Positions 1-27,205 of a stretch of DNA of 32,180 nt are shown piece after piece (position 1 is the first letter of the stretch; each line of letters starts with the position of its first letter). Made by a program: the position numbers and the translations under genes. This DNA is from Nemertoderma westbladi. Its lineage: Eukaryota; Animalia; Xenacoelomorpha. Under the pieces are notes generated by a model. That model was not told the DNA's origin. It saw nothing but the letters and a program-made list of their open reading frames with translations, and searched no databases. The stretch spans positions 1 to 32,180 of the forward strand of contig JAUCBJ010002970.1 of assembly GCA_032718475.1 (NCBI GenBank), in the 5' to 3' direction.

Positions 1-62
1 TAATTGATAATTTTGGAATCCGGATCCGAGTTTTACACCTACCCCCATAAAAGGAACAACCC

Positions 63-2980: not shown

Positions 2981-3286
2981 TAAACTGGATATATATTATA
3001 TATAGTATTATTTAGCCGTATTAAGTTAATTTATTACCATAGTTATCTAACTGCATGTTTTATTATATTCATTAACCCTTACCATCTGGCGTTATACCTA
3101 ATATTTAATAATATTTAATCACAAATTTAATTTCTACGAATTTTAATTTTGGAATCGAGTTTCTAATACAGTGGAGAGGAGATATTGTGTGATATCTATT
3201 TATTGATTGATAATTAGCATACTTAGGTACAATTAATACTATAAACATTACCGCATTACCTCAATTTGTCCACGAAATGCGAAATA

Positions 3287-3705
3287 CATTACAGCAGGGG
3301 ACAGGACATTACCATTACCATTACAGCAGGGGACAGGGCATTACCATTACAGCAGGGGACAGGACATTACCATTACAGCAGGGGACAGGACATTACCATT
3401 ACAGCTGGGGACAGGACATTACCATTACAGCAGGGGACAGGACATTACCATTACCATTACAGCAGGGGACAGGACATTACCATTACAGCAGGGGACAGGA
3501 CATTACCATTACAGCAGGGGACAGGACATTACCATTACAGCAGGGGACAGGACATTACCATTACAGCAGGGGACAGTACATTACCATTACAGCAGGGGAC
3601 AGGACATTACCATTACAGCAGGGGACAGGACATTACCATTACAGCAGGGGACAGGACATTACCATTACAGCAGGGGACAGGACATTACCATTACAGCAGG
3701 GGACA
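3287..3705. repeat. 26-bp minisatellite (CATTACAGCAGGGGACAGGACATTAC), about 15-16 copies, occasional extra CATTAC
   Basis: Direct tandem copies. The ORFs over it only reflect the periodicity. Confidence 0.97.
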
Positions 3706-4048
3706 TCAGTTTTTGGTTTGTAATTCCTTATAAAGTGACAATGACCATCATGCTTTAAACATAGCACCTCACCAACCCAAAATCCGTTTCGAATGATGTC
3801 TGTCCCATACGTTTCGATATTTTTTTGTAATTTTGTTTGAAAAAATCACGTAATTTGTCCACTTTTGAGGAGAATAAACCAATAGCATAATAATACATTA
3901 ATTTAGCAAACAAACAGCACATCTAATACTACATTAACACAATAAATACCTGCTAAACTTTAATTACCTGCACTAAGATAGATAAGTAGCATTTTCTATT
4001 GCAAATAATAAAAAATAATCTTTAAGAAGTCACTACTGAGTACCGGTA

Positions 4049-4430
4049 GTGTTTAAACGGGATCCCGATCACGAAAACCCGGGAATCCGACGAAAAATGC
4101 AATCCCGGTCCCGATCCCTACATTTCTGGAACGGGATCCCGAAATAGGTAAATTTGTTGAATATCTGATAAATAGTTCCAGCAGAATGGTAATGTTTTGA
4201 TTATATCGAATTTTTATGTCAGTAAACCATCGAGTAATCAATTGCAAAATAATATTAATATAACTTTATCTTACTAATATTTCAGAAGAGTAAGATAAAG
4301 TGAGTGTTACCCAAAACCCGCCACATATTAAGGAATTTAATCCAAAATTACAATCAGGATCCCGAAAATCGGGATCCCGAGAGTGATAATCCCGGTCCCG
4401 ATCCCAGAAAGTCTGATCCCGTTTAAACAC
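4049..4430. mobile_element. MITE-like element with 16-bp perfect terminal inverted repeats and GATCCCG subterminal repeats
   Basis: GTGTTTAAACGGGATC (4049-4064) pairs with GATCCCGTTTAAACAC (4415-4430). Many GATCCCG/ATCCCGGTCCCGATCCC motifs lie near both ends. No clear TSD. Confidence 0.75.
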
Positions 4431-4524
4431 AACTACAGATCGCGCTCAATCTGATCAGATTATAAATAATTAATAATTATAATAAATGTTACTTATAGTT
4501 GACGTGAATATTATAAGTATTTTA

Positions 4525-5017
4525 CTCTGTAGTCCCGAATAGACGGGGCGACACGGCTGTAAAATTAAAAAACAAATCCACCCACAATTCTCTCCCGATA
4601 TTAATAAATTAGTACATTTTTTATTATGAGTAAATAAACTTTTGTTCTCAAAATAATTGAATTGAAAGTGAAAGAAAACAAAAACCGCGTACCGAGTATA
4701 CCACCGGTAGCCTTAGGTACTACAACTGTACCTGTACGCCTATACTGTATGTTAAGTAAGTAGGTAAAATTTTCCACCCACCACGTTTATTCCAGCCACC
4801 CCGACTATTAGCACAACGAAATGTTTCCACCCAGCCACCCCGACTATTAGCATAATGAAATGTTTCCACCCAGCCACCCCGACTATTAGCATAACGAAAT
4901 GTTTCCACCCAGCCACCCCGTCTATTAGCATAACGAAATGTTTCCACCCAGCCACCCCGTCTATTAGCATAATGAAATGTTTCCACCCAGCCACCCCGTC
5001 TATTCGGGACTCCAGAC
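4525..5017. mobile_element. MITE with about 24-bp TIRs and TA target duplication (Tc1/mariner-type ends), just 3' of the ZnT1 stop
   Basis: TA-CTCTGTAGTCCCGAATAGACGGGG (4523-4548) versus CCCCGTCTATTCGGGACTCCAGAC-TA (4994-5019): 2 mismatches, TA on both sides. Confidence 0.8.
4770..5004. repeat. 39-bp tandem repeat (AATGTTTCCACCCAGCCACCCCGWCTATTAGCATAAYGA), about 5.5 copies, derived from the MITE right subterminus
   Basis: Direct tandem copies; each unit contains the inner part of the right TIR (CCCCGTCTATT). Confidence 0.93.
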
Positions 5018-5160
5018 TACTTAATTAGAATATATAACTGACTGACGTTGTCGCAGCACTAAAAAAGTAACCGAATAAACAAAGAGAGAGAGAAAGAGAG
5101 ACATAGAGCAACAGAGATCGATAAATACAACCGCGTAACTCTCACTGAGAAAATCTGTGT

Positions 5161-5595
5161 TCACAAAACGGTATGGAACTCCAATGGCACATCCTCTGTG
5201 GATGCGTGGGGCGGATTGGAGTCCGCAAAGGAAACCAAACCCCTCCTCTGCCGCAGTTCCTCCCAATCGGATGGGTTGGCAGCCCCTGGGACCCCGGCCG
5301 TCGCGAGATTCTTCTTGGAGGGACAGCAGGTCTGCTGCTCACAGCCGGCCTTGGGCTCGCACTCCAACATACAGCTGTCGGACTGCTGGCTCTCCTCGGA
5401 TGGATCCCCAGGGGCGACGAACTCGGGTTGGATCGTCGTCGAGTGGATCCCCTGGTCGTGCAGCAGGTCCTTTATCTGACGCGCAATCCGCATGTAGTCG
5501 CTGAGGTTGCGGCACTGGATGTGGGCCGAGGCGATGATTCGACGACCGGCGAGACGCCAAACGTGGAACTCGTGGACTCCCAGAACTCCAGACAC
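5161..5595 (-). CDS. SLC30A1: Zinc transporter ZnT1-like (CDF family), exon 2: cytosolic C-terminal domain and Cys-rich tail
   Basis: Acceptor ...TTCCGCTTCCGCAG|GTG (intron ends at 5596), phase 0. Translation VSGVLGVHEFHVWRLAGRRIIASAHI...LHDQGIHSTTIQPEF and CMLEC...CEQQTCC match ZnT1 CTD motifs. Confidence 0.93.
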   Translation of the reverse strand: MSGVLGVHEFHVWRLAGRRIIASAHIQCRNLSDYMRIARQIKDLLHDQGIHSTTIQPEFVAPGDPSEESQQSDSCMLECEPKAGCEQQTCCPSKKNLATAGVPGAANPSDWEELRQRRGLVSFADSNPPHASTEDVPLEFHTVL

Positions 5596-5605
5596 CTGCG
5601 GAAGC

Positions 5606-5932
5606 GGAACAGTCGCGCATTAGTGGTAGTGGAACAGTCGCGCATTAGAGGTAGTGGAACAGTCGCGCATTAGTGGTAGTGGAACAGTCGCGCATTAGTG
5701 GAACAGTCGCGCATTAGTGGTAGTGGAACAGTCGCGCATTAGTGGAACGAACAGTCGCGCATTAGTGGTAGTGGAACAGTCGCGCATTAGTGGAACGAAC
5801 AGTCGCGCATTAGTGGTAGTGGAACAGTCGCGCATTTAGTGGTAGTGGAACAGTCGCGCATTAGTGGTAGTGGAACAGTCGCGCATTAGTGGAACAGTCG
5901 CGCATTAGTGGAACGAACAGTCGCGCATTAGT
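5606..5932 (-). repeat. 14-copy 19-25-bp tandem repeat of the intron's branch-point segment (minus: CCACTAATGCGCGACTGTTCCACTA)
   Basis: 14 copies of CAGTCGCGCATT counted. The exon-proximal copy places CTAAT about 24 nt before the 3' AG. Confidence 0.93.
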
Positions 5933-6015: not shown

Positions 6016-6419
6016 CTAAAGCAAAAGGGTCCCAAAATCGGCTACCCGCTGTCATTTTTTAGAGTTTTTTTTGTGTTTTTGGGTGTTCTTTTGATAAATT
6101 GGTGAATGTTAATCTAGTGTTGTTGACAACGATTAATTTGAGCTGTTAACTGTTACCGTTAATATCATCAATATTTTAGGTCATTACTATAATTCTGCAA
6201 CAGTTTAAATCTGAAATATCAATGTTTTCACAAATTTTTTTATAATTTCCAAAAATACTAGCTAGTAAAAAAACACTATATAGATACCATTACAAAAAAC
6301 ATCTAACTGATGCTCTAGGACACTTACACTTCTTACCAATATCAAAAAATTTAAAAAATACTAAAAAAGAACTTGTGAAAAATGGAAGGGCTGTCGATAG
6401 GGTGAAGCTTTTGCTTTAG
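6016..6419. mobile_element. Possible old MITE with short TIRs
   Basis: CTAAAGCAAAAG (6016-6027) pairs with CTTTTGCTTTAG (6408-6419). AT-rich interior. No TSD recognised. Confidence 0.4.
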
Positions 6420-6584: not shown

Positions 6585-7888
6585 TTACGTCAGGAATAAG
6601 TTGATTCTATTAGATTTCTATTAATAACTTACCTCAGCAATAAGTTGATTCTATTAGATTTATATTAATAACTTACCTCAGCAATAAGTTAATTCTATTA
6701 GATTTCTATTAATAACTTACCTCAACAATAAGTTGATTCTATTAGATTTATATTAATAACTTACCTCAGCAATAAGTTGATTCTATTAGATTTCTATTAA
6801 TAACTTACCTCAACAATAAGTTGATTCTATTTGATTTATATTAATAACTTACCTCAGCAATAAGTTAATTCTATTAGATTTCTATTAATAACTTACCTCA
6901 ACAATAAGTTGATTCTATTAGATTTCTATTAATAACTTACCTCAGCAATAAGTTGATTCTTTTAGATTTCTATTAATAACTTACCTCAGTAATAAGTTGA
7001 TTCTATTAGATTTTATTAATAACTTACCTCAGCAATAAGTTGATTCTTTTAGATTTCTATTAATAACTTACCTCAGTAATAAGTTGATTCTATTAGATTT
7101 TATTAGATAACTTACCTCAGCAATAAGTTGATTCTATTAGATTTTATTAATAACTTACCTCAGCAATAAGTTGATTCTATTAGATTTCTATTAGATAACT
7201 TAACTCAGCAATAAGTTGATTCTTTTAGATTTCTATTAATAACTTACCTCAGCAATAAGTTGATTCTATTAGATTTATATTAATAACTTACCACAGCAAT
7301 AAGTTAATTCTATTAGATTTCTATTAATAACTTACCTCAGCAATAAGTTGATTCTATTAGATTTTATTAATAACTTACCTCAGCAATAAGTTAATTCTAT
7401 TAGATTTCTATTAGATAACTTAACTCATCAATAAGTTGATTCTTTCAGATTTCTATTAATAACTTACCTCAGCAAGAAGTTGATTCTATTAGATTTATAT
7501 TAGATAACTTAACTCAGCAATAAGTTGATTCTATTAGATTTTATTAATAACTTACCTCAGCAATAAGTTGATTCTATTAGATTTCTATTAGATAACTTAA
7601 CTCAGCAATAAGTTGATTCTTTTAGATTTCTATTAATAACTTACCTCAGCAAGAAGTTGATTCTATTAGATTTATATTAACAACTTACATCAGCAATAAG
7701 TTGATTCTATTAGATTTCTATTACATAACTTACCTCAGGAATAAGTTGATTCTATTAGATAACTTACCTCAGCAATAAGTTGATTCTAATAGATTTCTAT
7801 TAATAACTTACCTCAACAATAAGTTGATTCTTTTAGATTTCTATTAAGAACTTACCTCAGCAATAAGTTGATTATATTAGATTTCTAT
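6585..7888 (-). repeat. Splice-donor satellite block 1 (34-45-bp units)
   Basis: Tandem ATAACTTACCTCAGCAATAAGTTGATTCTATTAGATTTCTATTA; the core is identical to the exon-1/intron junction at 23844-23871. Confidence 0.97.
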
Positions 7889-9596
7889 TAGAGTTGTAAC
7901 AGAGACTTTGTCACTGATCTCTGAATTCTCCGGGCAATTTTTTGCTCTCCGGATAGGTCTCTGGTTCCCGGGTATTGAAGACAGACATTTTACCCAGAGA
8001 TCAGTTATTTTACAAATTAGAAATAGTTATTTAAAAATAGATCCTGTACAACACAAAATGTGAAATGAAGATTATTTTTCACAAATTTTTTACACTTAAT
8101 TCTTTAATTTTTAACTATTTTTAATACTCAGCTTCAACAAAATTATATATTCACTTTTACACTATTTTTAATCTAACTCTAAATGTTACTCAAACTAAAT
8201 GTACCGATAATCTTCTATTTAATTAATTTAAGGTGCGTTTAATTTTAAGTTAAATTAGCACCTAAAGATGGTTCTTATTTAAGGATAAAGGTGCTTAATT
8301 TGAGCACTCATAATGTTTAAAAGTGAAAGAAAGGGCTGATCTCCATTCAATTTGTTGTAGGATAGATAATATGACGACCAAATGAAGAAAACGAGCGTAA
8401 CGAGGCTTGTAAATGGGGCGAGTAGAGTACCATACCTGTGCACTGTATTTGTAATTTACTAAGTTTATTTTATAGTACATTGAATGAAATGTATATGATT
8501 TGAACAATTGTAAAATAAGTGCCTTTAATTAACCAAGTACCGGTAACTATGGCGCAAAACAAATTTATGTAACATATTATGGCTCTCACAGTTTGCCGTG
8601 CCACCTATTGCTATAATGGCACGGTAAAGTGTAATAGGACTGAGGAGCTCTCTTACATTTTGCCGGGCCACCTATATATATATTCAATATAATTCAAAAA
8701 AATATAATAGTTATATTTATATAACATATATTTACGGAAGTGATACCGTAATTACTCTACGTACAATTACATTTTGTTACGTCTTGTGTAGCTAATGTTT
8801 TTTTTATTGTTTGTTACTAAACCGGGTACACTTCCTTCACGTCCTTCTAGTTTCCCTAATTATGATATGATAGATTAAAAACTATCATTTTATTATATAA
8901 AAAAAATTGCAAAATAGCAAGCTAGCTAGTTTTTGTTTCTTGTCTTTTAAATGTTCTAGAGCATTATCAATCTATTTCATATAAAAATGTTGTTATAGAA
9001 CAAATATTTTTTGTTCTAGAACAAAAAATACAAAGCACTAGCTAACTTGTTAATTTTTTATTGTATGTTATCTTTGTATAATTTTTTTTTTACTAGCTAG
9101 TTTTGTTTATTTTTTAATGTTCTAGAACATATTATCTATACATTTAATATAAACATTTTGTTCTAGAACAAATATTTTTTGTTCTAGAACCTATATTTTA
9201 AGATCATTTTATTATATCAAAATATGGCTATAATGGCACGGTAAAGTGTAAGAGTCCCCACCCCATATTATTAACAATAACAAAATAAGAACGAATTAAT
9301 AAACAAATAACCAAATTAATATTAATTAAGTCCCCCAACCTGTACGTGAACTTATTTTCTTCCAATGGGTAAGGGTTGACATGGGTTGGATTTACTGTAA
9401 TTCAACCATATAAAAATAGTTATCAGTCCATATGTACGTACCTGTTTGTGCTTTATGGGACTAATCAAAATGTAAAGTAGAAAAATAAGCCAAGTCTCTG
9501 ATCTCTGGGTCTGGTCTCCGGTATTTTTCAAAATAATTATCTGGGTAGGTCTCTGGTTTACCGGGATTAAGAAAAACAGGCTCTGTTGCAACTCTA
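7889..9596. mobile_element. Non-autonomous hAT-like DNA transposon (1708 bp) inserted in the satellite
   Basis: TIRs TAGAGTTGTAACAGAG (7889-7904) and CTCTGTTGCAACTCTA (9581-9596), 1 mismatch. 8-bp TSD ATTTCTAT at 7881-7888 and 9597-9604. Subterminal GGTCTCTGG-like motifs. No transposase ORF. Confidence 0.88.
8581..9257. mobile_element. Nested inverted-repeat (MITE-like) sequence inside the hAT-like element
   Basis: Motif GCTATAATGGCACGGTAAAGTGTAA occurs at about 8610 and 9227, with degenerate inverted copies at about 8581-8603 and 8648-8670. Interior is rich in TTCTAGAA and CTAGCTAG palindromes. Confidence 0.5.
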
Positions 9597-9995
9597 ATTT
9601 CTATTAATAACTTACCTCAGCAATAAGTGGATTCTATTAGATTTATATTAATAACTTACCTCAGCAATAAGTTGATTATATTAGATTTCTATTAGATAAC
9701 TTACCTCAGCAATAAGTTGATTCTTTTAGATTTATATTAATAACTTACCTCGGCAATAAGTTGATTATATTAGATTTATTTTAATAACTTACCTCAGCAA
9801 TAAGTTGATTCTTTTAGATTTCTATTAATAACTTACCTCAGCAATAAGTTGATTCTATTAGATAACTTACCTCAGCAATAAGTTGATTCTATTAGATTTA
9901 TATTAATAACTTATCTCAGCAATAAGTTGATTCTATTAGATTTATATTAATAACTTACCTCAGCAATAAGTTGATTATATTAGATTTCTATTAGA

Positions 9996-9997
<2 letters not shown>
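9597..9997 (-). repeat. Splice-donor satellite block 2
   Basis: Same unit, lying between the hAT-like element and the LINE tail. Confidence 0.97.
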
Positions 9998-10029
<32 letters not shown>

Positions 10030-10514
10030 ATAAATTTACACCATAACTTAGAACTGAACAAAGACTGCATAGACAATTTAACTATAGTATTATATGGTGA
10101 TGGGGTTTCCCCCATAAGAGATACATTACATACATTTCATACATTACTTAGTTTAAAATATGAGTTAATAATTATTTAAGGTACATTAAAATACATCGAG
10201 TTAAAATTATTACTGTATGTAATTGGTCTCAAAAAGGCCGTGCTAATTATGAGATTAAACGAAGAAGTTAAAAGGGTCAGAAGACTGGATGTTATATGAA
10301 ATTAGATAGAAATATTTGTATTAAAATAAGATGAAATATATATATACGTATTAATAAAAGGGTCGGTCTCTGATGTCGTAAAAATGAGATTAAATATATG
10401 CGTATAAATTTAAAATGAGATGCAGTAAATACGTATTAAAAGGGTCAGAGTGGATGTGAAATGTAATAAAATTTGTATTAATTAAATAAAGCATTATAGA
10501 ATATAAGTCGTTAT

Positions 10515-13500
10515 CTATGGGTATAAATCATCGAGACGAGAGTTATTATTTCTACAGTTCATCAAGACGCAGCTGCAGCACACCGACCAGCTACAGCTAT
10601 ATGCCAAATGCAGTGTTAGCTCAACTTTTTGAGATTGATGTGGAAAGTCACCTACGACTTACTAACTTTCGAGGACTATATAATACATTTAACACCTCCA
10701 ATAAAAAGATATCTTCTTTCTTTGGGTCTTTACTGTGTGACCACTGGACAGACGAGGATAATAAAGACTCAATATTTACTCTTTATCAGATGTCCAGCTG
10801 GTATCATGACTTGCCACCACTGAATTCACTAGCTGTGCATAATTACTCCCCTCAACACTGCATTCAAAAACGGAAGAAAGAGTTGCAGCACCAAATCACT
10901 GATCATGATATGTTCCTCACGCTGATTAATCTATCTCTCCTCAACAGGCCAGACATACCTATGTCACTGAGAAAGGAGGTTTTGCAAGAGACTAATAAGA
11001 TGGTCTTGGTGGGCTTATAACTTCTGTTTTCGCTGGACATACTTATTTAGTTAACTGCACATTCATTTCAAGTAATATTTTAATGCAATTTTAATGTGAA
11101 TCCTTTTCAGCTAACTGCACATTTAATTCAGTTTAATATTTAAATGCAATTTTGATGTGAACCGTTTATTGTGGTTCTCTTTTACTAATTATGACTCTAA
11201 TATAGCCGCCGGGGCGCAAGCCGGATAATAATAATAATAACAGGGAATATCAATTGAGTAGTGTTTAATGAAGTACCTCCAAAATAAATCGATCAGACGA
11301 GATTTAAGCCCTACATGGTTTGTGAAATTGATTCGATTAGGTAATACATTTGCAATGTAAGGTACTCGGAACCAAAAGTTTTGTTCTGACTTGCATTTCT
11401 TCGGCCGCACAACATTAAATAAAATCCGATCATTTGAACGAGTATTTTGGTTTGATGGTCTGCTTAGTTTGAGGTGTTCTTCCCAGTTGATATCGCATTT
11501 TCCAGCGATAATCTTCGACAGCGTCATCAAATCTAAGAGTTGTAGGTAGAGAGAAAGGGGGAGTATGTTAAGTGATTTGAGCCGATCTGTGTAGGTCGAT
11601 TCATTATCTCGTAGTATCCAGATAGTGGCACGTCGTTGTAGACTCTCTATACGTGATAGGTCGTGTTTATTTGGAGACCAACATGGTGATGCATAGGTTA
11701 TTATCGGTAGAATCATAGATTTGTACATATTTAATTTCGATAGAGCGGTAAGATTTGATGCACAGTTACGTTTTATTAGTTGGAAGGCCATGTTTCCTTT
11801 ACTGCATTTTTCAGTTACGTGTGCGGTCCAGGTAATATTCGATGAGAAGGTGACTCCCAGATCTTTTTCTGAGGTGGTTCGTTCTATCGGATGGCTATTA
11901 ATAAATTTTACGTTGGACTGCCCTTGAAAGATAAGTTGTTTACATTTGCTGATATTAAATTCAAGACCGTTACTTTGACCCCAGACTGATAATTTATTTA
12001 AATCGTCTTGTATTTGTGGGGGATTGGTTGTCGGATATATGGAAACAAGTTTGCAATCGTCAGCGAGTAGATAAGGGTCTGTTTGTGTGCAAATGTTCGG
12101 TAGGTCATTCGATTCTACTAAGAATAACAATGTTGCTAGAATACTTCCTTGCGGAGTCCCGCTGTCAACATCTTTAGTTTTTGACACTGCATCCACAACT
12201 TTCACTGATTGAGTTCTATCTGATAAGATAGCTACGTATCATTTCCCATAGTTTTCCCCGAATTCCTAATTTCCATAACTTTAGTGGCACCGAACTATGA
12301 GATATTGAGTCAAAAGCCTTTTGAAAGTCTAGATAAATTATTTATATTGTTGAATCATTATTTTCTATAGCGTGATATATTTTATCTAAAACCACAAGCA
12401 GTTGAAGAACAGGTGAGCGGCCTTTTCTAAAACCATACTGAGCGCGATGATAAAGTGGACGAAGATGGCTGTAAATTGGCATGTAGATACATCGTTCTAG
12501 AATTTTCGAGGGGATGGCAAGTAAAGATATTGGACGGTAAAGCGGTACTGGAGTTCTATTGCCCTTCTTATGTCGTGGTGATATTGATGCATGTTTCCAT
12601 TCTCGTGGAAAGTAACAGTTGTCTTTAAACACCAAAAATAATGCAGCTAAAGATGGTGCTAGTTGTACTTTTAATTGTTGGAGGAAATGTGGTGGTAAGT
12701 TATCGGGGCCTCTGGCTTTGGTAACATTTAGTGATGTTAGGAGTAGTTGTACAGTGGATACAGACACATCGTAGTCGTCAATAAAATTATCATGGTAGGG
12801 ATCCTCAGTGGGGGATAATGTTGGAGGAGTAATTGATGCTGTTTTTATTGCTGGCTTTTTGTAAACTGAGTGGAAGAATTCGGAAAAATGGTCAGCTTGT
12901 TCTGCCGGTGTACATGCGGTATACCCATTATAAGTTACAAGAGGTGGTATTGCACTGGTGTTTCGTAAAGATTTGAAGTATTTATAGAGTTGTTGCATAG
13001 AGCGACTACTGGCTAGTTTGCATTCATGTTGAGCCTGGTCAGTTTCTAGATCCGTATTTATTTCGTGTTCCATATTTCGTAGTTTATTCAATAGAGATGG
13101 TGGTGGCTTTTTGTGTTCGGGGTATTTGTTAACTCTGCGTTTCAATGTTTCCAGTTTGTGTAATTTGTGTGAGGTGTGTTGGGTAACCCATGGTGGTAAG
13201 ATTGAGCGATGGAGAGTTCGTCTTGGTACGCTAGCTTCAATTATTTTTCCAATCCATTCGTACCATCTTGTGAGTAAATTATCTAGGTCTTCTATTGTAT
13301 GGGGTCCAACCATTACGCTGAAGGGGTTCTTTGTGCAGATGGTTGTGGCAACACCCACATCAAGTTTACAGAAACTATGACGATTAGTTGAGTTAATGGT
13401 GGGAACACGTTTTGGTGTTGCATTTAGTATGACTTGTACTGGATGGTGGTCGGATTTACAATTAGTTTTCAAATAATTATAGCCTTCGAAAAATGAATTT

Positions 13501-14162
13501 ACATCCACAATTAGGTTATTAGAGTTCGAAAGCAATATGTCTAGCGTATTTGTACCTCTCGTGGGGAATGTAACGTATTGTTTAAAATTAAATTCATCAA
13601 AAATATTTAAAAATGCACTTTCATATGGATCCCTAGAAAAAAATGAGTCCCAATGCACATTAGGCAGATTCAAGTCACCACAAATAATTAAATCATTGAG
13701 ATTTATTTCCCAGTTTTTGATTATGTTAAAAAGAATAATAAAATTAGATATTGGAATACGATATATACTTTCACTTGGGGGATTGTATATACATACAAGC
13801 CCTATTTTCCTATTGTTTAAAATACAAGTACAAGCACAAACGGCATTGGTTAAGAGATTAAAATTATCGGATAGCTCATCCTTGATGTTTAGTGTGGTAT
13901 ATGGTATACCGGATTTGATAGCGATTAAAGCACCACCATGTGAGGATACACCATCGGGTTTACCTGGTCGTTCTGCACGAACTAAGTTATATTTACTGAG
14001 AAAAAGTACCCTATTATTAAAATCTGGTGTTAACCATGTTTCACATAAACACACGAAATTATAATCTAACGTGAGTAGAGTATTTGCGAGGTTCTTTCGT
14101 TTATCTAGCCGAATAATACCTTGTGTGTTATATATAAGTAAGTCCGATCTATGGGTGTTCAT
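10515..14162 (-). pseudogene. LINE ORF2 (APE endonuclease + reverse transcriptase), disrupted
   Basis: APE motifs YNTQG, CLCETWL, GDLN, TLDILL, SDHHPV. RT motifs YRPISLL, QYGFR, YLDFQKAFD, PQGS, LADD, EKDLGV. In-frame TAA at 12342-12344, frameshift near 12225, insertion at 10597-11239. The Cys-rich end IPC|SWSVCCSCVLMNC...YP* resumes at 10595-10515. Confidence 0.92.
10597..11239 (+). mobile_element. 5'-truncated non-LTR retroelement nested in LINE ORF2 in opposite orientation, (ATA)n tail
   Basis: ACAG is duplicated at 10593-10596 and 11240-11243, and removing the insert restores ORF2 I-P-C-S-W. Open frame to TAA at 11020, a duplicated ~50-bp segment in the 3' UTR, a GC hairpin CCGG...CCGG, then (ATA)5. 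Confidence 0.8.
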
Positions 14163-14171
14163 GTTTGAGTT

Positions 14172-14778
14172 TGACCCGCTGGGTGCCATGGGTCTGCACG
14201 TAGGGAACAGAGATCCGCTGCGTGCCGTGGTTCTGGATGAGGGTCCGGAGAAGACCCGCTGGGTGCTGTGGGTCTGGACGCAGGGACCTGAGACCCGCCG
14301 GGTGCCGTGGGTCTGGACGCAGGGAACGGAGACCCACTGGGTGCCGTGGGTCTACATGCAGGGACTGGAGACCCGCCGGGTGCCGTGGGTCTACACGCAG
14401 GGAACGGAGACCCCCTGGGTGCCGTGGGTCTACACACAGGGAACGGAGACTCGCTGGGTGCCGTGGGTCTACACGCAGGGACCGGAGACCCGCCGGGTGC
14501 CGTGGGTCTGCACGCAGGGAACGGAGACTCGCTGGGTGCCGTGGGTCTACACGCAGGGACCGGAGACCCGCCGAGTGACGTGGGTCTGCATGCAGGGAAC
14601 GGAGACCCGCCGGGTGCCGTGGGTCCAGACGCAGGAACTGGAGACTCGCTGGGTGCCGTGGGTCTACATGCAGGGACCGGAGACCCGCCGGGTGCCGTGG
14701 GTCTACACGCAGGGAACGGAGACCCGCTGGGTGCTGTGGGTCTGGATGCAGGAACCGGAGACCCGCTGGGTGCCGTGT
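14172..14778. repeat. GC-rich 39-bp tandem array (about 15 units) between LINE ORF1 and ORF2, encoding PTAPGGSPVPACR-like repeats in the ORF1 frame
   Basis: Unit GAGACCCGCCGGGTGCCGTGGGTCTACACGCAGGGAMCG with an internal AGACCC/GGGTCT inverted repeat. Confidence 0.93.
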
Positions 14779-14800
14779 GTCTTGTTATTGGATTATATAG

Positions 14801-16120
14801 TCATTCTATATTTATTACCTGTGATTGAGATGGATTTGTTGTAGTTGGGGATATATTACAGGAGGTACTAAATGAAGATGAGTCAGATCTGTAGAATGTT
14901 CGTTGTCTATGTAAACATTGATCGTTGGTTAGCCGAGCTGTGTTCATGGTTTTTCCTAGATTGTTAATAGATGCCGAGTCAACCACTTCGTTTCGGTAGA
15001 TGACCCAGCGTTTATCTGGGTGACTAGATTGCATCGCACGCCTTTCCTGTCGTAAGTCATATTGCAGACGACTTTCTTCTGGTGTGAGATCTAACGATAT
15101 ATATATGTGGTTATATCTTTGTGATTTACATAAATCACGAGCTTTCTGTAGTAGTTTAGCTCGCTTTTCTGGGGGTAATGTAACTACTACGGGTTGCGAG
15201 TTGTTTTCTCGTAGTTTCCCCACACGTTTAAAGTTTATATCGTTCTCTTCTAGTGTGACATTGAGAGTAGAGGCGATGTCGATAATAAGATCTTTGTCAT
15301 TATCTTGCGGACTGGAACCGGATATAACGATGTTTGATCTGCGTTTATTTTGTTCAGATTCTTCGTGTTTTAATTGCCGTGTTAGTATAGCAAGGTTTGT
15401 TGTATTGTTTGGTTTTTTGCAGCGGGAATATGACACGTTTTTCCATGGCCAAGCTTCATTACTTGTTGTATCACCATTAGTAGTCGTATTTTCAGTCGTG
15501 CGATTACTGGCAGCGGATTTTAAATCTTCGAGTTCTAGGTCTATATCATCGTGTTTCTTTTGTAGCTCTTCGATGTTACTTTCTGTCTCAACCCTAAGGT
15601 TCTTGAAAGCATTCTCCATAGCTCGTCTATTATCTTTGATCTGTACCTCCAAGATCTTAGATCGAGAATCGTAGTCATTTACTTGTCCGTGGAGTTTTGT
15701 TATATTGTGGTCTACTCGCAGTTCCAAGGCTTCCATTTCCTTTGATAAATTAGATAAACGACAACCAACACATTTTCCGCAGTAGAAGTCGATGCGACCA
15801 AAATCCGTCCCTATCTTTACGATGCAAATCATCGATACATCGCAATTGGAGCCAGAGCAACTCACCTCAATCTCAGTTAGTCCATCGTCACTATTTGCTG
15901 TGGGATCCACTACCGATTTAGTAGTTGCTGTGACCAAATTTGACGATTTCCCGCTTATCCTTTTGTTTTCTTCTTTTGATTGTTTGTGTAGTTGAGATTT
16001 CGGCTCGTTTATATTGGGGTTCCCAGCTGCAACTCCAATGCTGAGACGACGAGAAGATAAGGACATACTTTGACGATGGTTGTCATCGCTGTTATTGTTT
16101 CTTTTCCGCTGCGACGACAT
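14801..16120 (-). CDS. LINE ORF1 protein (Cys-rich region, coiled coil, RRM/L1-ORF1-like C-terminal part)
   Basis: First ATG (MSSQRKR) at 16120. Cys cluster CSGSNC...FYCGKCVGC, heptad-rich region, and RRSNIVISG, RVGK, PVVVTL, IYISLDLT motifs typical of CR1/L2 ORF1. Confidence 0.85.
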   Translation of the reverse strand: MSSQRKRNNNSDDNHRQSMSLSSRRLSIGVAAGNPNINEPKSQLHKQSKEENKRISGKSSNLVTATTKSVVDPTANSDDGLTEIEVSCSGSNCDVSMICIVKIGTDFGRIDFYCGKCVGCRLSNLSKEMEALELRVDHNITKLHGQVNDYDSRSKILEVQIKDNRRAMENAFKNLRVETESNIEELQKKHDDIDLELEDLKSAASNRTTENTTTNGDTTSNEAWPWKNVSYSRCKKPNNTTNLAILTRQLKHEESEQNKRRSNIVISGSSPQDNDKDLIIDIASTLNVTLEENDINFKRVGKLRENNSQPVVVTLPPEKRAKLLQKARDLCKSQRYNHIYISLDLTPEESRLQYDLRQERRAMQSSHPDKRWVIYRNEVVDSASINNLGKTMNTARLTNDQCLHRQRTFYRSDSSSFSTSCNISPTTTNPSQSQVINIE

Positions 16121-16258
16121 TCTTAAAGTAGTAGATACTAATCCAGATCGGCCCAAAGGGTGCCAGATATAAATTAATTTGTAGTACCGGTAAATCAAAT
16201 AAAAAGTTGCAAAGGTTTCAGTGAATGTCAGAATGTCAAAAAAATTGAAGTGAAATAG

Positions 16259-19200
16259 GATAACTTACCTCAGCAATAAGTTGATTCTATTAGATTTATA
16301 TTAATAACTTACCTCAGCAATAAGTTGATTATATTAGATTTCTATTAGATAACTTACCTCAGCAATAAGTTGATTCTTTTAGATTTCTATTAATAACTTA
16401 CCTCAGCAATAAGTTGATTCTATTAGATTTCTATTAGATAACTTAACTCAGAAATAAATTGATTTTATTAGATTTCTATTAATAACTTACCTCAGCAATA
16501 AGTGGATTCTATTAGATTTATATTAATAACTTACCTCAGCAATAAGTTGATTATATTAGATTTGTATTAGATAACTTACCTCAGCAATAAGTTGATTCTT
16601 TTAGATTTATATTAATAACTTACCTCAGCAATAAGTTGATTATATTAGATTTATTTTAATAACTTACCTCAGCAATAAGTTGATTCTTTTAGATTTCTAT
16701 TAATAACTTACCTCAGCAATAAGTTGATTCTATTAGATAACTTACCTCAGCAATAAGTTGATTCTATTAGATTTATATTAATAACTTACCTCAGCAATAA
16801 GTTTATTATATTAGATTTCTATTAGATAACTTACCTCAGCAATAAGTTGTTTTTTTTAGATTTCTATTAATAGCTTACCTCAGCAATAAGTTGATTCTAT
16901 TAGATTTCTATTAGATAACTTAACTCAGAAATAAATTGATTTTATTAGATTTCTATTAATAACTTACATAAGCAATAAGTTGATTCTAATAGATTTCTAT
17001 TAATAACTACCTCAGCAATAAGTTGATTTTATTAGATAACTTACCTCAGCAATTGATTCTAATAGATTTATATTAATAACTTACCTCAGCAATAAGTTGA
17101 TTCTAATAGATTTATATTAATAACTACCTCAGCAATAAGTTGATTTTATTAGATAACTTACCTCAGCAATAAGTTGATTCTAATAGATTTCTATTAATAA
17201 CTTACCTCAGCAATAAGTTGATTCTAATAGATTTCTATTAATAACTTACCTCAGCAATAAGTTGATTCTATTAGATAACTTACCTCAGCAATAAGTTGAT
17301 TCTAATAGATTTATATTAATAACTACCTCAGCAATAAGCTGATTTTATTAGATAACTTACCTCAGCAATAAGTTGATTCTAATAGATTTCTATTAATAAC
17401 TTACCTCAGCAATAAGTTGATTCTAATAGATTTCTATTAATAACTACCTCAGCAATAAGTTGATTTTATTAGATAACTTACCTCAGCAATAAGTTGATTT
17501 TATTAGATAACTTACCTCAGCAATTGATTCTAATAGATTTATATTACCTCAGCAATAAGTTGATTCTAATAGATTTCTATTAATAACTTACCTCAGCAAT
17601 AAGTTGATTCTAATAGATTTCTATTAATAACTACCTCAGCAATAAGTTGATTTTATTAGATAACTTACCTCAGCAATAAGTTGATTCTAATAGATTTCTA
17701 TTAATAACTTACCTCAGCAATAAGTTGATTCTAATAGATTTCTATTAATAACTTACATAAGCAATAAGTTGATTCTAATAGATTTCTATTAATAACTACC
17801 TCAGCAATAAGTTGATTTTATTAGATAACTTACCTCAGCAATTGATTCTAATAGATTTATATTAATAACTTACCTCAGCAATAAGTTGATTCTAATAGAT
17901 TTCTATTAATAACTACCTCAGCAATAAGTTGATTTTATTAGATAACTTACCTCAGCAATTGATTCTAATAGATTTATATTAATAACTTACCTCAGCAATA
18001 AGTTGATTCTAATAGATTTCTATTAATAACTACCTCAGCAATAAGTTGATTCTATTAGATAACTTACCTCAGCAATAAGTTGATTCTAATAGATTTATAT
18101 TAATAACTACCTCAGCAATAAGTTGATTTTATTAAATAACTTACCTCAGCAATAAGTTGATTCTAATAGATATCTATTAATAACTTACCTCAGCAATAAG
18201 TTGATTCTAATAGATTTATATTAATAACTACCTCAGCAATAAGTTGATTTTATTAGATAACTTACCTCAGCAATAAGTTGATTCTAATAGATTTATATTA
18301 ATAACTACCTCAGCAATAAGTTGATTTTATTAGATAACTTACCTCAGCAATAAGTTGATTTTATTAGATAACTTACCTCAGCAATAAGTTGATTCTAATA
18401 GATTTATATTAATAACTACCTCAGCAATAAGTTGATTTTATTAGATAACTTACCTCAGCAATAAGTTGATTCTAATAGATTTATATTAATAACTACCTCA
18501 GCAATAAGTTGATTTTATTAGATAACTTACCTCAGCAATAAGTTGATTCTAATATATTTATATTAATAACTACCTCAGCAATAAGTTGATTTTATTAGAT
18601 AACTTAACTCAGCAATAAGTTGATTCTATTAGATTTATATTAATAACTTACCTCAGCAATAAGTTGATTCTAATAGATTTCTATTAATAACTTACCTCAG
18701 CAATAAGTTGATTCTATTAGATTTATTTTAATAACTTACCTCAGCAATAAGTTGATTCTATTAGATTTATATTAATAACTTACCTCAGCAATAAGTTGAT
18801 TCTAATAGATTTCTATTAATAACTTACCTCAGCAATAAGTTGATTCTAATAGATTTATATTAATAACTACCTCAGCAATAAGTTGATTTTATTAGATAAC
18901 TTACCTCAGCAATAAGTTGATTTTATTAGATAACTTACCTCAGCAATTGATTCTAATAGATTTATATTAATAACTTACCTCAACAATAAGTTGATTCTAA
19001 TAGATTTCTATTAATAACTACCTCAGCAATAAGTTGATTTTATTAGATAACTTACCTCAGCAATAAGTTGATTTTATTAGATAACTTACCTCAGCAATTG
19101 ATTCTAATAGATTTATATTAATAACTTACCTCAGCAATAAGTTGATTCTAATAGATTTCTATTAATAACTTACCTCAGCAATAAGTTGATTCTAATAGAT

Positions 19201-22200
19201 TTCTATTAATAACTTACCTCAGCAATAAGTTGATTCTATTAGATAACTTACCTCAGCAATAAGTTGATTTTATTAGATAACTTACCTCGGCAATAAGTTG
19301 ATTCTATATGATTTCTATTAATAACTTACCTCAGCAATAAGTTGATTCTATTAGATTTATATTAATAACTTACCTCAGCAATAAGTTGATTCTAATAGAT
19401 TTCTATTAATAACTTACCTCAGCAATAAGTTGATTCTAATAGATTTATATTAATAACTACCTCAAGTTGATTTTATTAGATAACTTACCTCAGCAATAAG
19501 TTGATTCTAATAGATTTCTATTAATAACTTACCTCAGCAATAAGTTGATTCTAATAGATTTATATTAATAACTACCTCAGCAATAAGTTGATTTTATTAG
19601 ATAACTTACCTCAGCAATAAGTTGATTTTATTAGATAACTTACCTCAGCAATTGATTCTAATAGATTTATATATTAATAACTTACCTCAGCAAAAAGTTG
19701 ATTCTAATAGATTTCTATTAATAACTTACCTCAGCAATAAGTCGATTTTATTAGATAACTTACCTCAGCAATAAATTGATTCTATATGATTTCTATTAAT
19801 AACTTACCTCAGCAATAAGTTGATTCTAATAGATTTCTATTAATAACTTACCTCAGCAATAAGTTGATTTTATTAGATAACTTACCTCAGCAATAAGTTG
19901 ATTCTAATAGATTTATATTAATAACTTACCTCAGCAATAAGTTGATTTTATTAGATAACTTACCTCAGCAATAAGTTGATTTTATTAGATAACTTACCTC
20001 AGCAATTGATTCTAATAGATTTATATTAATAACTTACCTCAGCAATAAGTTGATTCTAATAGATTTCTATTAATAACTTACCTCAGCAATAAGTTGATTT
20101 TATTAGATAACTTACCTCAGCAATTGATTCTAATAGATTTATATTAATAACTTACCTCAGCAATAAGTTGATTCTCATAGATTTCTATTAATAACTTACC
20201 TCAGCAATAAGTTGATTTTATTAGATAACTTACCTCAGTAATAAGTTGATTTTATTAGATAACTTACCTCAGCAATAAGTTGATTCTAATAGATTTATAT
20301 TAATAACTTACCACAGCAATAAGTTGATTCTAATAGATTTATATTAATAACTACCTCAGCAATAAGTTGATTTTATTAGATAACTTACCTCAGTAATAAG
20401 TTGATTCTATTAGATAACTTACCTCAGCAATAAGTTGATTCTAATAGATTTATATTAATAACTTACCACAGCAATAAGTTGATTCTAATAGATTTATATT
20501 AATAACTACCTCAGCAATAAGTTGATTTTATTAGATAACTTACCTCAGTAATAAGTTGATTTTATTAGATAACTTACCTCAGCAATAAGTTGATTCTAAT
20601 AGATTTATATTAATAACTTACCACAGCAATAAGTTGATTCTAATAGATTTATATTAATAACTACCTCAGCAATAAGTTGATTTTATTAGATAACTTACCT
20701 CAGTAATAAGTTGATTCTATTAGATAACTTACCTCAGCAATAAGTTGATTCTAATAGATTTATATTAATAACTTACCACAGCAATAAGTTGATTCTAATA
20801 GATTTATATTAATAACTACCTCAGCAATTAGTTGATTTTATTAGATAACTTACCTCAGTAATAAGTTGATTCTATTAGATAACTTACCTCAGCAATAAGT
20901 TGATTCTAATAGATTTATATTAATAACTTACCTCAGCAATAAGTTGATTCTAATAGATTTCTATTAATAACTTACCTCAGCAATAAGTTGATTCTAATAG
21001 ATTTCTATTAATAACTTACCTCAACAATAAGTTGATTCTATTAGATAACTTACCTCAGCAATAAGTTGATTCTAATAGATTTCTATTAATAACTTACCTC
21101 AGCAATAAGTTGATTCTAATAGATTTCTATTAATAACTTACCTCAGCAATAAGTTGATTCTAATAGATTTCTATTAATAACTTACCTCAACAATAAGTTG
21201 ATTCTATTAGATAACTTACCTCAGCAATAAGTTGATTCTAATAGATTTCTATTAATAACTTACCTCAGCAATAAGTTGATTTTATTAGATAACTTACCTC
21301 AGTAATAAGTTGATTCTAATAGATTTATATTAATAACTTACCTCCAGCAATAAGTTGATTCTATTAGATTTCTATTAATAACTTACCTCTGTAATAAGTT
21401 GATTTTATTAGATAACTTACCTCAGCAATAAGTTGATTTTATTAGATAACTTACCTCAGCAATAAGTTGATTTTATTAGATAACTTACCTCAGCAATAAG
21501 TTGATTTTATTAGATAACTTACCTCTGTAATAAGTTGATTCTATTTGATTTCTATAAGATAACTTACATCAGCAATAAGTTGATTCTATTAGATTTCTAT
21601 TACATAACTTACCTCAGGAATAAGTTGATTCTATTTGATTACTATAAGATAACTTACATCAGCAATAAGTTGATTCTATTAGATTTCTATCACATAACTT
21701 ACCTCAGGAATAAGTTGATTCTAATAGATTTATATTAATAACTTACCTCAGCAATAAGTTGATTTTATTAGATAACTTACCTCTGTAATAAGTTGATTCT
21801 ATTTGATTACTATAAGATAACTTACATCAGCAATAAGTTGATTTTATTAGATAACTTACCTCAGCAATAAGTTGATTTTATTAGATAACTTACCTCAGCA
21901 ATAAGTTGATTTTATTAGATAACTTACCTCTGTAATAAGTTGATTCTATTTGATTTCTATAAGATAACTTACATCAGCAATAAGTTGATTCTATTAGATT
22001 TCTATTACATAACTTACCTCAGGAATAAGTTGATTCTATTTGATTACTATAAGATAACTTACATCAGCAATAAGTTGATTCTATTAGATTTCTATCACAT
22101 AACTTACCTCAGGAATAAGTTGATTCTAATAGATTTATATTAATAACTTACCTCAGCAATAAGTTGATTTTATTAGATAACTTACCTCAGCAATAAGTTG

Positions 22201-23871
22201 ATTTTATTAGATAACTTACCTCAGCAATAAGTTGATTTTATTAGATAACTTACCTCAGCAATAAGTTGATTTTATTAGATAACTTACCTCTGTAATAAGT
22301 TGATTCTATTTGATTTCTATAAGATAACTTACATCAGCAATAAGTTGATTCTATTAGATTTCTATTACATAACTTACCTCAGGAATAAGTTGATTCTATT
22401 TGATTACTATAAGATAACTTACATCAGCAATAAGTTGATTCTATTAGATTTCTATCACATAACTTACCTCAGGAATAAGTTGATTCTAATAGATTTATAT
22501 TAATAACTTACCTCAGCAATAAGTTGATTTTATTAGATAACTTACCTCTGTAATAAGTTGATTCTATTTGATTACTATAAGATAACTTACATCAGCAATA
22601 AGTTGATTCTATTAGATTTCTATCACATAACTTACCTCAGGAATAAGTTGATTCTAATAGATTTATATTAATAACTTACCTCAGCAATAAATTGATTTTA
22701 TTAGATAACTTACCTCAGCAATAAGTTGATTCTAATAGATTTATATTAATAACTTACCTCAGCAATAAGTTGATTTTATTAGATAACTTACCTCAGCATC
22801 AGCAATAAGTTGATTCTTTTAGATTTATATTAATAACTTACCTCAGCAATAAGTTAATTCTATTAGATTTCTATTAATAAATTACCTCAGCAATAAGTTG
22901 ATTCTAATAGATTTCTATTAATAACTACCTCAGAAATAAGTTGATTATATTAGATTTCTATTAATAACTTACCTCAGCAATAAGTCGATTCTATTAGATT
23001 TCTATTAATAACTTACCTCAGCAATAAGTTGATTCTATTAGATTTCTATTAATAAATTACCCAGCAAAAAGTTGATTCTAATAGATTTCTATTAATAACT
23101 TACCTCAGCAATAAGTTGATTCTATTAGATTTCTATTAATAACTTACCTCAGCAATAAGTTGATTCTATTAGATTTCTATTAATAAATTACCCAGCAAAA
23201 AGTTGATTCTAATAGATTTCTATTAATAACTTACCTCAGCAATAAGTTGATTCTAATAGATTTCTATTAATAACTTACCTCAGCAATAAGTTGATTCTAA
23301 TAGATTTCTATTAATAACTACCTCAGAAATAAGTTGATTATATTAGATTTCTATTAATAACTTACCTCAGCAATAAGTCGATTCTATTAGATTTCTATTA
23401 ATAACTTACCTCAGCAATAATTTGATTCTATTAGATTTCTATTAATAAATTACCCAGCAAAAAGTTGATTCTAATATATTTCTATTAATAACTTACCTCA
23501 GCAATAAGTTGATTCTATTAGATTTCTATTAATAACTTACCTCAGCAATAAGTCGATTATATTAGATAACTTACCTCAGCAATAAGTTGATTTTATTAGA
23601 TAACTTACCTCAGCAAGAAGTTGATTTTATTAGATAACTTACCTCAGCAATAAGTTGATTCTATTAGATTTATATTAATAACTTACCTCAGCAATAAGTT
23701 GATTCTATTAGATTTCTATTAATAAATTACCCAGCAAAAAGTTGATTCTAATAGATTTCTATTAATAACTTACCTCAGCAATAAGTTGATTCTATTAGAT
23801 TTCTATTAATAACTTACCTCAGCAATAAGTCGATTATATTAGATAACTTACCTCAGCAATAAGTTGATTCT
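16259..23871 (-). repeat. Splice-donor satellite block 3 (7.6 kb) with higher-order repeats; the last unit is the authentic exon-1 end
   Basis: Continuous 34/43/44/45-bp units. The terminal unit at 23844-23871 reads CAG AAT CAA CTT ATT GCT GAG|GTAAGTTAT on the minus strand. Confidence 0.97.
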
Positions 23872-24922
23872 GTACGGCTTCCACTTTAATATGCGTCGGA
23901 ACGGTTTGTAGTAGAATGTGAGCTGATTCCTTTAGAAGGGGGACAGTAGTGGACATAATGATAGAAAGCATAACGAGAGTTAGAGCGGGGTCTACATAGA
24001 CCACCCAGGATCCTTCCACCCTCCATATAATAACGGCCGATATAACGACAACTATAGAGCCGAGGAAATCGCCTAAGACGTGAAGGAAGACCGCTTTCAT
24101 ATTGAGTTGCTCGTCTTTAACGGCATGATGGCTATTTACGTTGGATAGCCCGATTATGTAATTATCACCTCTCTCGTTTTCTAGCGGTTCTGAAGCCGTT
24201 GAACAATTATTAATAGCGGAGGGAGGGCGATCGTCTACTATAGATTCTAGAACCGCGGGGATAGGCGACTTGTGGGTGTCGCTAGAAGGCCGTGTTAGTG
24301 GGGTTTTAGCGGGGGTTGAGCGAGCGAGGCTATACGATTGTGTGTCGCTACAATGCGAGGTGCCGATACTAGGCGTAGCCGGTGCGGTGGAATGTCCTGC
24401 AAAGTTGTCCTCCTCTTCGAGATAACCAGCCTGCTCTGCGATACTTTCCGCGACAAGGACAGCCTCCACTGCGCGACTGGCTCCGTGAGAGTGGCCGTGG
24501 AAGAGTTTCAAACCGATCAGATTAACTAAGAGACCGACGCCACCAACAATGAGAACCATCATTGGGTTGTCGACTGGTTCCGGCTGTATCAATCGTTTAA
24601 CAACATTTACGAACATCGATAAACAAAGTGAAGCGAGGAACACAGCGTTAACCAAGGCGCCTAACACTTCCGCACGGGCCCATCCAAACGTGTTCTTAGA
24701 AGTTTTTCTTTTTGAGATTCGGACTGCGAACAGGCCAATTAGAAGAGCTAAAACGTCGGACAACATATGGAAGGAATCGGACACCAAGGCCATTGATTTG
24801 GTTAGGTACCCCACGACTATTTCGACGAGGAAGTAACTCGCTGTTAGACCAAGCATCACTGCGAACCGCCATGTGCGGTTACCGTGACCGCCGCCGTGAG
24901 AGTGTCCGTATCCTCCCCCCAT
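23852..24922 (-). CDS. SLC30A1: Zinc transporter ZnT1-like (CDF family), exon 1: six TM helices with HD/HD transport site
   Basis: FLVEIVVG, SDSFHMLSD (TM2), NTFGWARAEVLGALVN, HGHSHG, LNMKAVFLHVLGD (TM5), YVDPAL, LLQTVP. 357 codons, ending at GAG|GTAAGT. Confidence 0.95.
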
Positions 24923-25185
24923 CGTTTTGTGATCGGTGAGTAGTAGGCCTATCGGTACGGTACCTGCCTACCTCTTCTTGATGTCTTGACTATCATGTAT
25001 CACCTCTCTAGTCAGCTAGTCTCTACCAGTTTACGGTCGGTCAGACGGTACCAGTACACAACATAGGTACACCATGGCCGTACACACTGTACAGTTGTAG
25101 TACCGGTACAACTGTACCTATCTGACTAAACCATGTCCCAGAATATTACAGGTATTATTATAGTGTCGTAATTCAGTGATAATAA

Positions 25186-26240: not shown

Positions 26241-27205
26241 TTAGTAAGATTGTTCCAGACAGATTGGACAGCGTTTTACGTTCTCGCCGCATATCTGGCA
26301 GGTTCCGTGGCCGCAGGGGAAGCCGCCACAACAACGGCGTTTCACACAGAGCGGACAAATAGAGCCGCCGTACTGCTGCTCGAGTTTACGGATGTACGCC
26401 GCGTTCTTGGACGACGGTTGTGGCGCCTTAATGTTTGTCTCTCGTGGTGTTGCTGATTCTGATAGGATGGAGCCGCTTGGAGGCGCCACACAGCCGCTAG
26501 GGGGCGCCACACCGCCGCTAGGGGGCGCCACACCGCCGCTAGGTGGCGCCACACCGCCACCAGGGGGCGCCACACAGCCGCTAGGGGGCGCCACACCGCC
26601 GCCACCCGTAGCAGACAGACCAACATCCGACGCCACTCTACACACAGCCGCCGAGTTGAACACAAATGTATCCCCCCCGCCCAGCCGCACCTTAACTCCC
26701 CCCTCGAACACATCCTCAACCCCCCCAGTGCGACCCGCGACGCCAACCATCGAGTCGCACCACCCGAAACTATCCTCTTGCAGCGACCGCAAAGCGACCT
26801 CGTTGCTACATATAACAACCCGGTCGCCCACCGATATACGCCTACTAGCGGGCGACACCGGACCGGAGTTTACACGCTCTCTCTCGGCTGACCGGGTAAT
26901 AATTTCCTCGGATACAATCTCCCTATCGGAGGACCCAACTCGCTCCCTATCGGTTGGTACGTCGTCCTTTTGGATCCTCGTCAGGATCGCGGGATTAAAG
27001 AAACATTTCTTCCCGTCGAGGTAATGCACCTCGACATCGTTATCGTCGTCGATCCATACGATCAGGCCGGTGGCCCCCAGAACCCCCGCCATCTGTTCGT
27101 TCCAACCGCCGTGACCCTGTTGCAGCCGTTTCACCGTTTTCTCTTCCAAGTCAATCCGGATTTGATCTCCCACCCGAAACCGAGCCGCTTCATTGCTAGC
27201 TAGGC
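26241..27205 (-). CDS. Mind bomb-like E3 ligase-related gene, last exon: Mib repeats 3 and 4, VAPPSGG repeats, RING finger
   Basis: Acceptor TTTAG|GC, phase 1. FRVGDQIRIDL...LQQGHGGW...FNPAIL and ISVGDRV...FNSAAV (SH3_15-like). CPLC...CGHGTCQIC...CPIC resembles the MIB1 C-terminal RING. Confidence 0.85.
26480..26602. repeat. 21-bp coding tandem repeat (VAPPSGG/C x6)
   Basis: GGCGCCACACCGCCGCTAGGG tandem copies inside the exon. Confidence 0.93.

Follow-up and report, generated by a model that had tools for sequence, protein, structure and literature searches.

How does a gene keep splicing correctly when its first donor is followed by 171 exact copies of itself, and how did those copies come to be there? 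This question is raised by contig JAUCBJ010002970.1 of Nemertoderma westbladi, from which we analysed a stretch of 32,180 nt (here called the window; all positions refer to its full length). The window holds a minus-strand, two-exon gene whose spliced open reading frame (ORF) encodes a ZnT1/SLC30A1-like protein of 502 aa. The single intron of this gene carries, over ~9.3 kb, 226 tandem units built from the gene's own exon 1/intron junction. The gene and the three blocks of the array are located as follows, with CDS denoting coding sequence and LINE denoting a long interspersed nuclear element that lies between blocks A and B.

24922-23852, minus strand: exon 1 CDS, 1071 nt, 357 codons, phase 0, encoding the Cation_efflux domain; the repeat unit takes its exonic half from the final 20 nt
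23851-5596, minus strand: intron, 18,256 nt, GT..AG, with the junction at 23852/23851
5595-5161, minus strand: exon 2 CDS, covering the cytosolic domain (ZT_dimer) and the tail; the acceptor is CAG, at 5596
16261-23871, minus strand: donor array block A, 188 units, holding the authentic junction, with exact internal duplications of up to 451 nt
9597-9995, minus strand: donor array block B, 9 units, identical in 388 of 397 letters to 16869-16472 across the LINE
6585-7888, minus strand: donor array block C, 29 units, the last of them decayed, at ~6590

A donor array at the exon 1 junction of a ZnT1-like gene

A Pfam search matched exon 1 to Cation_efflux and exon 2 to ZT_dimer, the domain content of the CDF family (SLC30A1/ZnT1). 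The top named homologues, from a hemichordate, lancelets and molluscs, were SLC30A1-like proteins. None of the best homologues of exon 1 was close, the best matches being ~45% identical over its length. The predicted junction joins the two exons in register: the spacing from LQTVP to HEFH is 27, the same as in 57 of the 114 scored homologues, and it is 26 in the other 57. One of 120 proteins, a horseshoe-crab ZnT1 isoform (P0028), departs from homology at the matching residue, where LLQK is followed by VS and an unrelated tail. Since VS at this residue is what read-through would give, the isoform offers a hint that the intron position is old and probably older than the array.

To count the units, we used a fuzzy match allowing at most four differences, and the count of 226 applies to the assembled window. 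The search found no unit elsewhere in the window outside blocks A, B and C. Each unit consists of the exon 1 end (20 nt) followed by the donor, and the first unit is the authentic junction itself. The initial annotation, made from the sequence of this stretch, had described such a unit with the real junction as its terminal copy, and had estimated more than 200 copies in about 9.3 kb, most with a consensus donor; the gene model and the unit search bear this out. The exact motif GAG/GTAAGT (the slash marks the splice position) is present in 172 of the 226 units (141, 8 and 23 in blocks A, B and C, authentic donor included), leaving 171 exact spare donors, and was found 0 times on the plus strand. 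GT is retained in 218 units, and the complete 20-nt exon end plus 9-nt donor is exact in 79. In an intron of the same composition, the chance expectation for GAGGTAAGT is 0.06. When the array was cut into 229 pieces, the lengths were 44 nt (90 pieces), 34 nt (65), 43 nt (32), 45 nt (27) and 40 nt (7), with eight others. To the 20 exonic letters are added 14 intronic letters in the 34-mers or 23-25 in the 43-45-mers, and these long forms contain an internal duplication of 10-11 nt. Among the 229 pieces there are 82 distinct unit sequences, arranged in ordered higher-order patterns.

Read-through past donor 1 meets a stop after VSYLI, 16-18 nt into the intron. The initial annotation was therefore right that extension of exon 1 ends in this way and that only the most upstream donor gives the full-length protein.

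The three blocks that had been recognised initially are present, but they are better described as a single array that was later split by two insertions, a LINE and an element with terminal inverted repeats:

9996-16260, minus strand (sense to the gene): LINE inserted inside one unit, with endonuclease and reverse-transcriptase domains (Pfam) and a (TAA)n tail
7889-9596, strand unassigned: DNA-transposon-like element, 1.7 kb, non-coding, bounded by terminal inverted repeats of 16 bp that agree at 15 positions

Removal of the LINE (16260-9996) restores a perfect 45-nt unit, and this, together with the match of block B to block A given above, shows that one array was split. The LINE is near-complete. 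It comprises ORF1 (~14801-16123, no Pfam match) and ORF2 (11189-14240), which encodes endonuclease and reverse transcriptase and is interrupted by a frame change near 12240-12345, with a GC-rich 39-bp repeat lying between the two (14173-14782); no clear target-site duplication was seen at its insertion. The 1.7-kb element is flanked by an 8-bp target-site duplication, ATAGAAAT, which is derived from the repeat unit. From the length of this duplication, we take the element to be hAT-like. As a separate observation, the antisense strand of the LINE's long 3' part is open for 176 codons (10490-11020), with no Pfam match.

The array has also turned over internally. A CTATTAG variant, with 71 copies in all, is present in 57 of the 108 central units (21300-17000) and in two of the 55 units at the edges (1/17 at the LINE-side edge of block A, 0/9 in B and 1/29 in C). 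The pattern is that of ordinary, concerted satellite turnover in which the edges lag, and it implies an array of some age, old enough to have received two mobile-element insertions.

The donor and the array in sequencing-run contigs

Of eight sequencing runs, five (X1-X5), none of them recorded as RNA, shared words with exon 1, and X6-X8 shared none. Contigs of the five were compared with the window over two stretches, 23770-24990 and 5010-5690. X1 possibly derives from the source sample, while X2 and X4 derive from another sample, with single-nucleotide polymorphisms in exon 1. X5 covers 5110-5234 only.

X3 contributed a single record on either stretch, a contig of 1732 nt at depth 187. This contig joins unique exon 1 to exon 2 at the predicted sites, from donor 1 to 5595, with its 3' end at ~5021; in the comparison over 5010-5690, the exon 2 side of the join was read at 5597. 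X3 had zero depth on the donor array and on the branch-point repeat described below, and no contig using a downstream donor was present in this one run. Judged from its spliced, repeat-free contig, X3 is likely to be an RNA run, although it is labelled 'DNA?'. The initial annotation had left to be checked which donor copy joins 5595; in this likely RNA contig it is the first, the one that gives the full-length protein. Donor 1 is the dominant donor on the strength of this single contig, minor isoforms being invisible in contigs.

Array contigs were found in X1, X2 and X4, at a summed depth hundreds of times that of single-copy sequence. Array units are continuous with the unique flank at 6585 in one X1 contig, and one X2 contig contains the boundary between the LINE tail and the array. 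Together, these contigs indicate that the array and the LINE are common to two individuals. Each of the eight loose ends on the donor-side stretch belonged to the locus itself, as flank, LINE tail, exon 2 or array sequence. Of the five places where the array meets other DNA, two were recovered, so that sensitivity to copies at other loci is limited. One X1 contig reached a depth of 1102.6, which is 47-95 times single copy, compared with 27 for the best matching 49-mer of the window and 60 for its commonest 31-mer. A longer allele or additional loci are possible sources of this excess. In X1, exon 1 was covered at a single-copy depth of 11.6 and exon 2 at one of 23.7, a difference that may reflect library unevenness or one haplotype, and the ratios of array to single-copy depth were threefold apart between X2 and X4, two runs of one sample. 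Array copy number from contig depth was dropped as imprecise on account of these discrepancies.

A second repeat lies at the other end of the intron:

5606-5932, minus strand: branch-point-region minisatellite, ~14 copies of 19-25-nt units, with 13 CTAAT branch-point-like motifs

The last CTAAT stands at -25 from the acceptor. The 352 nt that precede the acceptor are free of AG, as is the repeat unit. In X2, a contig of flat depth runs from exon 2 through ~63 nt of the repeat into the flank at 5933, corresponding to ~2.5 units, and X1 has high-depth contigs on the repeat. With ~14 units in the window and ~2.5 in X2, the branch-point repeat is length-polymorphic. Both intron repeats have a harmless polarity: the spare donors lie behind the first, and the spare branch points come without a spare AG.

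Several other features of the window were noted. The regions 2344-2469, 3313-3705, 4046-4433 and 6016-6419 comprise a further two minisatellites, with units of 30 bp and 20/26 bp, and two candidate elements with inverted repeats. A small element at 4523-5019, which has terminal inverted repeats and contains a 39-bp repeat (4792-5004), starts where the X3 contig ends (~5021), at the 3' end of the gene. A broken reverse-transcriptase ORF of another LINE (Pfam RVT_1) is at 146-1112 on the minus strand. The upstream gene (26241-29004, minus strand) encodes several copies of the Mind bomb SH3 repeat (SH3_15 in Pfam, matched in three ORFs) and a terminal RING-like cysteine cluster, and has a 21-bp coding repeat at 26472-26602. 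Palindromic TGTTCTAGAACA-type motifs occur at 8950-9190 in the 1.7-kb element and at ~28350-28380 in an intron of the upstream gene, and likely represent a small dispersed element.

Probable origin and tolerance of the array

We consider it likely that the array arose by neutral minisatellite expansion from the real exon 1/intron junction and has been tolerated by choice of the most upstream donor. A duplication of 34-45 nt across the existing junction would have seeded it, slippage and unequal exchange would have amplified it, and newer variants would then have swept the centre. Besides the donor array, the window holds seven other minisatellites, an unusual richness indicating that such DNA forms them readily. 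First-come choice would keep the 171 spare donors silent; this outcome is the one seen in X3, and the scanning rule behind it is borrowed by analogy from human F7. The VSYLI stop lies 16 nt before the exon junction in a product of donor 2, 60 nt before it in a product of donor 3 and 147 nt before it in that of the next exact donor. Under the 50-55-nt rule for nonsense-mediated decay, leaked products would mostly be degraded, the stop being at least 60 nt upstream of the junction from donor 3 onward, and those of donor 2 alone could escape. U1 bound to each unit may also mask the AATAAA that follows 10-12 nt downstream, so that polyadenylation signals could drift in without cutting the transcript.

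Hairpin masking was ruled out as the cause of the donor 1 preference, as donor 1 is predicted to be exposed to the same degree as the rest (unpaired probability 0.23, against 0.23 +/- 0.06 for the other 171 donors). In RNA folding against shuffles, one of five stretches reached z -2.3, and an Rfam search of the sequence returned 0 matches.

Six points weigh against neutral expansion with first-come choice. First, the RNA evidence is one run, labelled 'DNA?', and consists of contigs only, which drop rare isoforms. Second, some leakage to donor 2 or 3 could be occurring, as in 6-16 and CBS (PMC1557585). Third, the F7 scanning rule was demonstrated in mammalian cells (PMC1557585). Fourth, intronic AATAAA near donors has been reported as selected against in 17 eukaryotes (PMC5499120). 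Fifth, the donor is intact in 60 of the 61 units in which AATAAA follows it compared with 112 of the 165 others, which pure drift does not predict. Sixth, the very intron that carries the donor array has another repeat, placed on its branch point; the chance that any of seven other arrays would end this close to the acceptor is ~0.012, a rough, post hoc figure from one window.

The sixth point is the basis of the alternative that survives best, a splice-signal-biased birth or survival of repeats in the source genome. It addresses how the array arose and can stand alongside the neutral reading. In its favour, both ends of one intron repeat their own splice signals, and the mirages of lancelets occur at both 5' and 3' boundaries in several genes (PMC3087553, PMC3902484). 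However, the chance estimate has the limits just given, and no similar array is found at the junctions of the neighbouring Mind-bomb-repeat gene. Selection alone would halt the spread of a repeat at exon edges. Moreover, the junction hairpin is no stronger than that of shuffled sequences (z -0.26 as RNA; 0.02 and -0.23 as DNA), hence no structural trigger was found. We therefore regard a biased origin as unlikely, though worth keeping in view.

The fifth point bears on a selected, self-shielding U1 scaffold or rheostat, in which U1 on up to 172 sites would suppress the AATAAA signals and slow or divert splicing, so that the length of the array or the level of U1 would set the dose of ZnT1. The array contains 64 AATAAA motifs (6.9 per kb, against 1.8 in the intron outside it), and in 60 cases the motif follows an exact donor at 10-12 nt. 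Donors number 37 per 2 kb, compared with 'more than 5 per 2 kb' in chicken LL2R (bioRxiv 10.64898/2026.03.19.712899), and the predicted U1 pairing of -10.7 kcal/mol (8 predicted pairs) outweighs the -5.6 kcal/mol of the local hairpin. The suppression of nearby intronic polyadenylation signals by U1 is established (PMC5499120). The retention of the donor beside AATAAA does not extend to the adjacent exon-derived 9-mer (39/61 versus 132/165). Counted per copy, the association has P=1e-7, but copies are non-independent through shared descent; counted by allele, one of ten donor-breaking alleles is ever found with AATAAA where 27% is expected (P=0.20). The AATAAA variant is also clustered in the homogenised centre, with 50 of the 61 in 22700-17000. 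Across the array as a whole, donor letters are not conserved above their neighbours as a regulatory decoy would be: the fraction of units with an intact copy is 0.77 for the donor 9-mer and 0.62-0.87 for other core 9-mers, and alternative letters per position number 1.0 for the donor and 1.26 for its neighbours. X3 showed no alternative product, and U1 binding would be expected as a by-product even for a neutral array. Collectively, these results make a selected scaffold quite improbable. Self-shielding by U1 is plausible as a means of tolerance, a hint that falls short of demonstrated function.

The two preceding alternatives can be joined. Splice signals would then seed their own repeats, the array would shield itself, AATAAA units would be obliged to keep their donor, and a 170-site U1 scaffold under internal selection would tune, through its length, the balance of full-length and truncated exporter. 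This combination strikes us as distinctly doubtful.

We also considered whether a dispersed satellite or transposon repeat landed here, possibly creating the intron, with the match to exon 1 being secondary. The summed contig depth of the array, and the X1 contig that exceeds the best 49-mer of the window, would fit such a repeat. In contrast, the 20 exonic letters encode protein that is in register with homologues, the horseshoe-crab isoform hints at an intron position that predates the array, and all eight loose ends on the donor side belong to the ZnT1-like locus. A dispersed origin is thus very unlikely.

Stepwise (recursive) splicing, with each AG/GT serving as a ratchet point, is barely credible: the units do carry AG/GTAAGT with a CTAAT-like motif ~20 nt upstream, but the putative acceptor is GAG rather than the YAG of a ratchet site, pyrimidines at -23 to -4 average 0.52 compared with 0.65 at the real acceptor, TAG or AAG stands just upstream (AG contexts in block A: TAG 219, GAG 171, AAG 163, CAG 7), and an 18-kb intron that is half array has no need of 40-nt steps. 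An assembly artefact is just as hard to credit; the CTATTAG variant is absent from the differences listed for X1, X2 and X4, for which contig simplification is the sole explanation offered, but the distinct units in ordered patterns, the clean insertion junctions with a target-site duplication, the high-depth array contigs in two samples and the two junctions recovered in contigs all argue against it.

Of the interpretations put forward in the initial annotation, a tolerated array and the footprint of a mutational process fit these results. The functional ones, an unproductive-splicing rheostat and a stepwise splicing aid, found no support, given the ordinary conservation of the donor, the lack of a downstream-donor contig in one likely RNA run and the missing features of recursive splice sites.

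Relation to known exon-boundary repeats

The arrangement was initially treated as unprecedented. It is in fact an exon-boundary minisatellite (a mirage, or a variable number tandem repeat (VNTR) of the F7 type), a class that has already been described (PMC1557585, PMC3087553). The units run head to tail and are mostly 34-45 nt long, the terminal unit spans the authentic boundary, many units keep the splice signal, and the authentic donor is used in the one X3 contig. What sets this case apart is its scale: 171 identical, strong spare donors extend over 17 kb behind the real one. Two features are new here, namely that the branch-point region of an array-bearing intron is also repeated, and that units with AATAAA keep the donor in all but one case.

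Among human genes, intron 7 of F7 (IVS7) carries a 37-bp VNTR with 5-9 identical donors, of which only the most upstream is used (PMC1557585). The same paper gives 25 pseudo-sites for 6-16, 15-20 for CBS, 10-15 for LMNB2 and 16-18 for PDGF; 6-16 and CBS leak to two further sites, and LMNB2 and PDGF behave like F7. For CBS IVS13, 16-21 repeats have been reported (PMC2630376), and human splicing-associated repeats are catalogued in PMC10078293. As in the array described here, the first monomer of these F7-type VNTRs spans the boundary, identical pseudo-donors follow, the upstream donor dominates and the unit length is similar. The human VNTRs have 5-25 copies, so that the Nemertoderma array is ~9 times the longest published case compared. 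The donors here are further distinguished by their 8 predicted U1 pairs, by a stop 16-18 nt into the intron and by the 64 AATAAA motifs. In the accessible literature, our search found no donor-spanning array near 226 units, and the supplements of PMC10078293 may list longer human cases. None of the published cases compared puts first-come choice of a 5' splice site to so extreme a natural test as this locus, which comes from a non-mammalian animal. Its unit variants act as barcodes, so that long reads could tell which donor leaks.

Chicken LL2R is likewise a transcribed tandem repeat rich in donor sites. Its RNA concentrates small nuclear ribonucleoproteins (snRNPs), and it provides a model for a scaffold that concentrates U1 and other snRNPs (bioRxiv 10.64898/2026.03.19.712899). 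LL2R is non-coding, has long monomers and is depleted of polyadenylation signals. In contrast, the array described here lies in a spliced intron of a protein-coding gene, has ~7 times denser donors and is rich in AATAAA. The 64 AATAAA motifs beside U1 sites allow a direct test of U1 protection from premature polyadenylation.

The closest invertebrate counterparts are the lancelet mirages, minisatellite-like duplications of exon-intron boundaries described in Adh3, the globins BflGb6 and BflGb9, troponin C and PGBD5 (PMC3087553, PMC3902484). They leave splicing undisturbed and show concerted evolution (PMC3087553). As in the ZnT1-like gene, their units span a real boundary and keep its splice signals while normal splicing persists, and both 5' and 3' boundaries can be duplicated. 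Their length is unstable, as is that of the branch-point repeat here. BflGb6 has 3-6 units of 150-160 bp, compared with 226 units, 9.3 kb and two mobile-element insertions here. The 3'-side repeat also differs, in that it copies the branch-point region without the AG. This polymorphic branch-point repeat bears on why mirages form, which is called unclear in PMC3087553.

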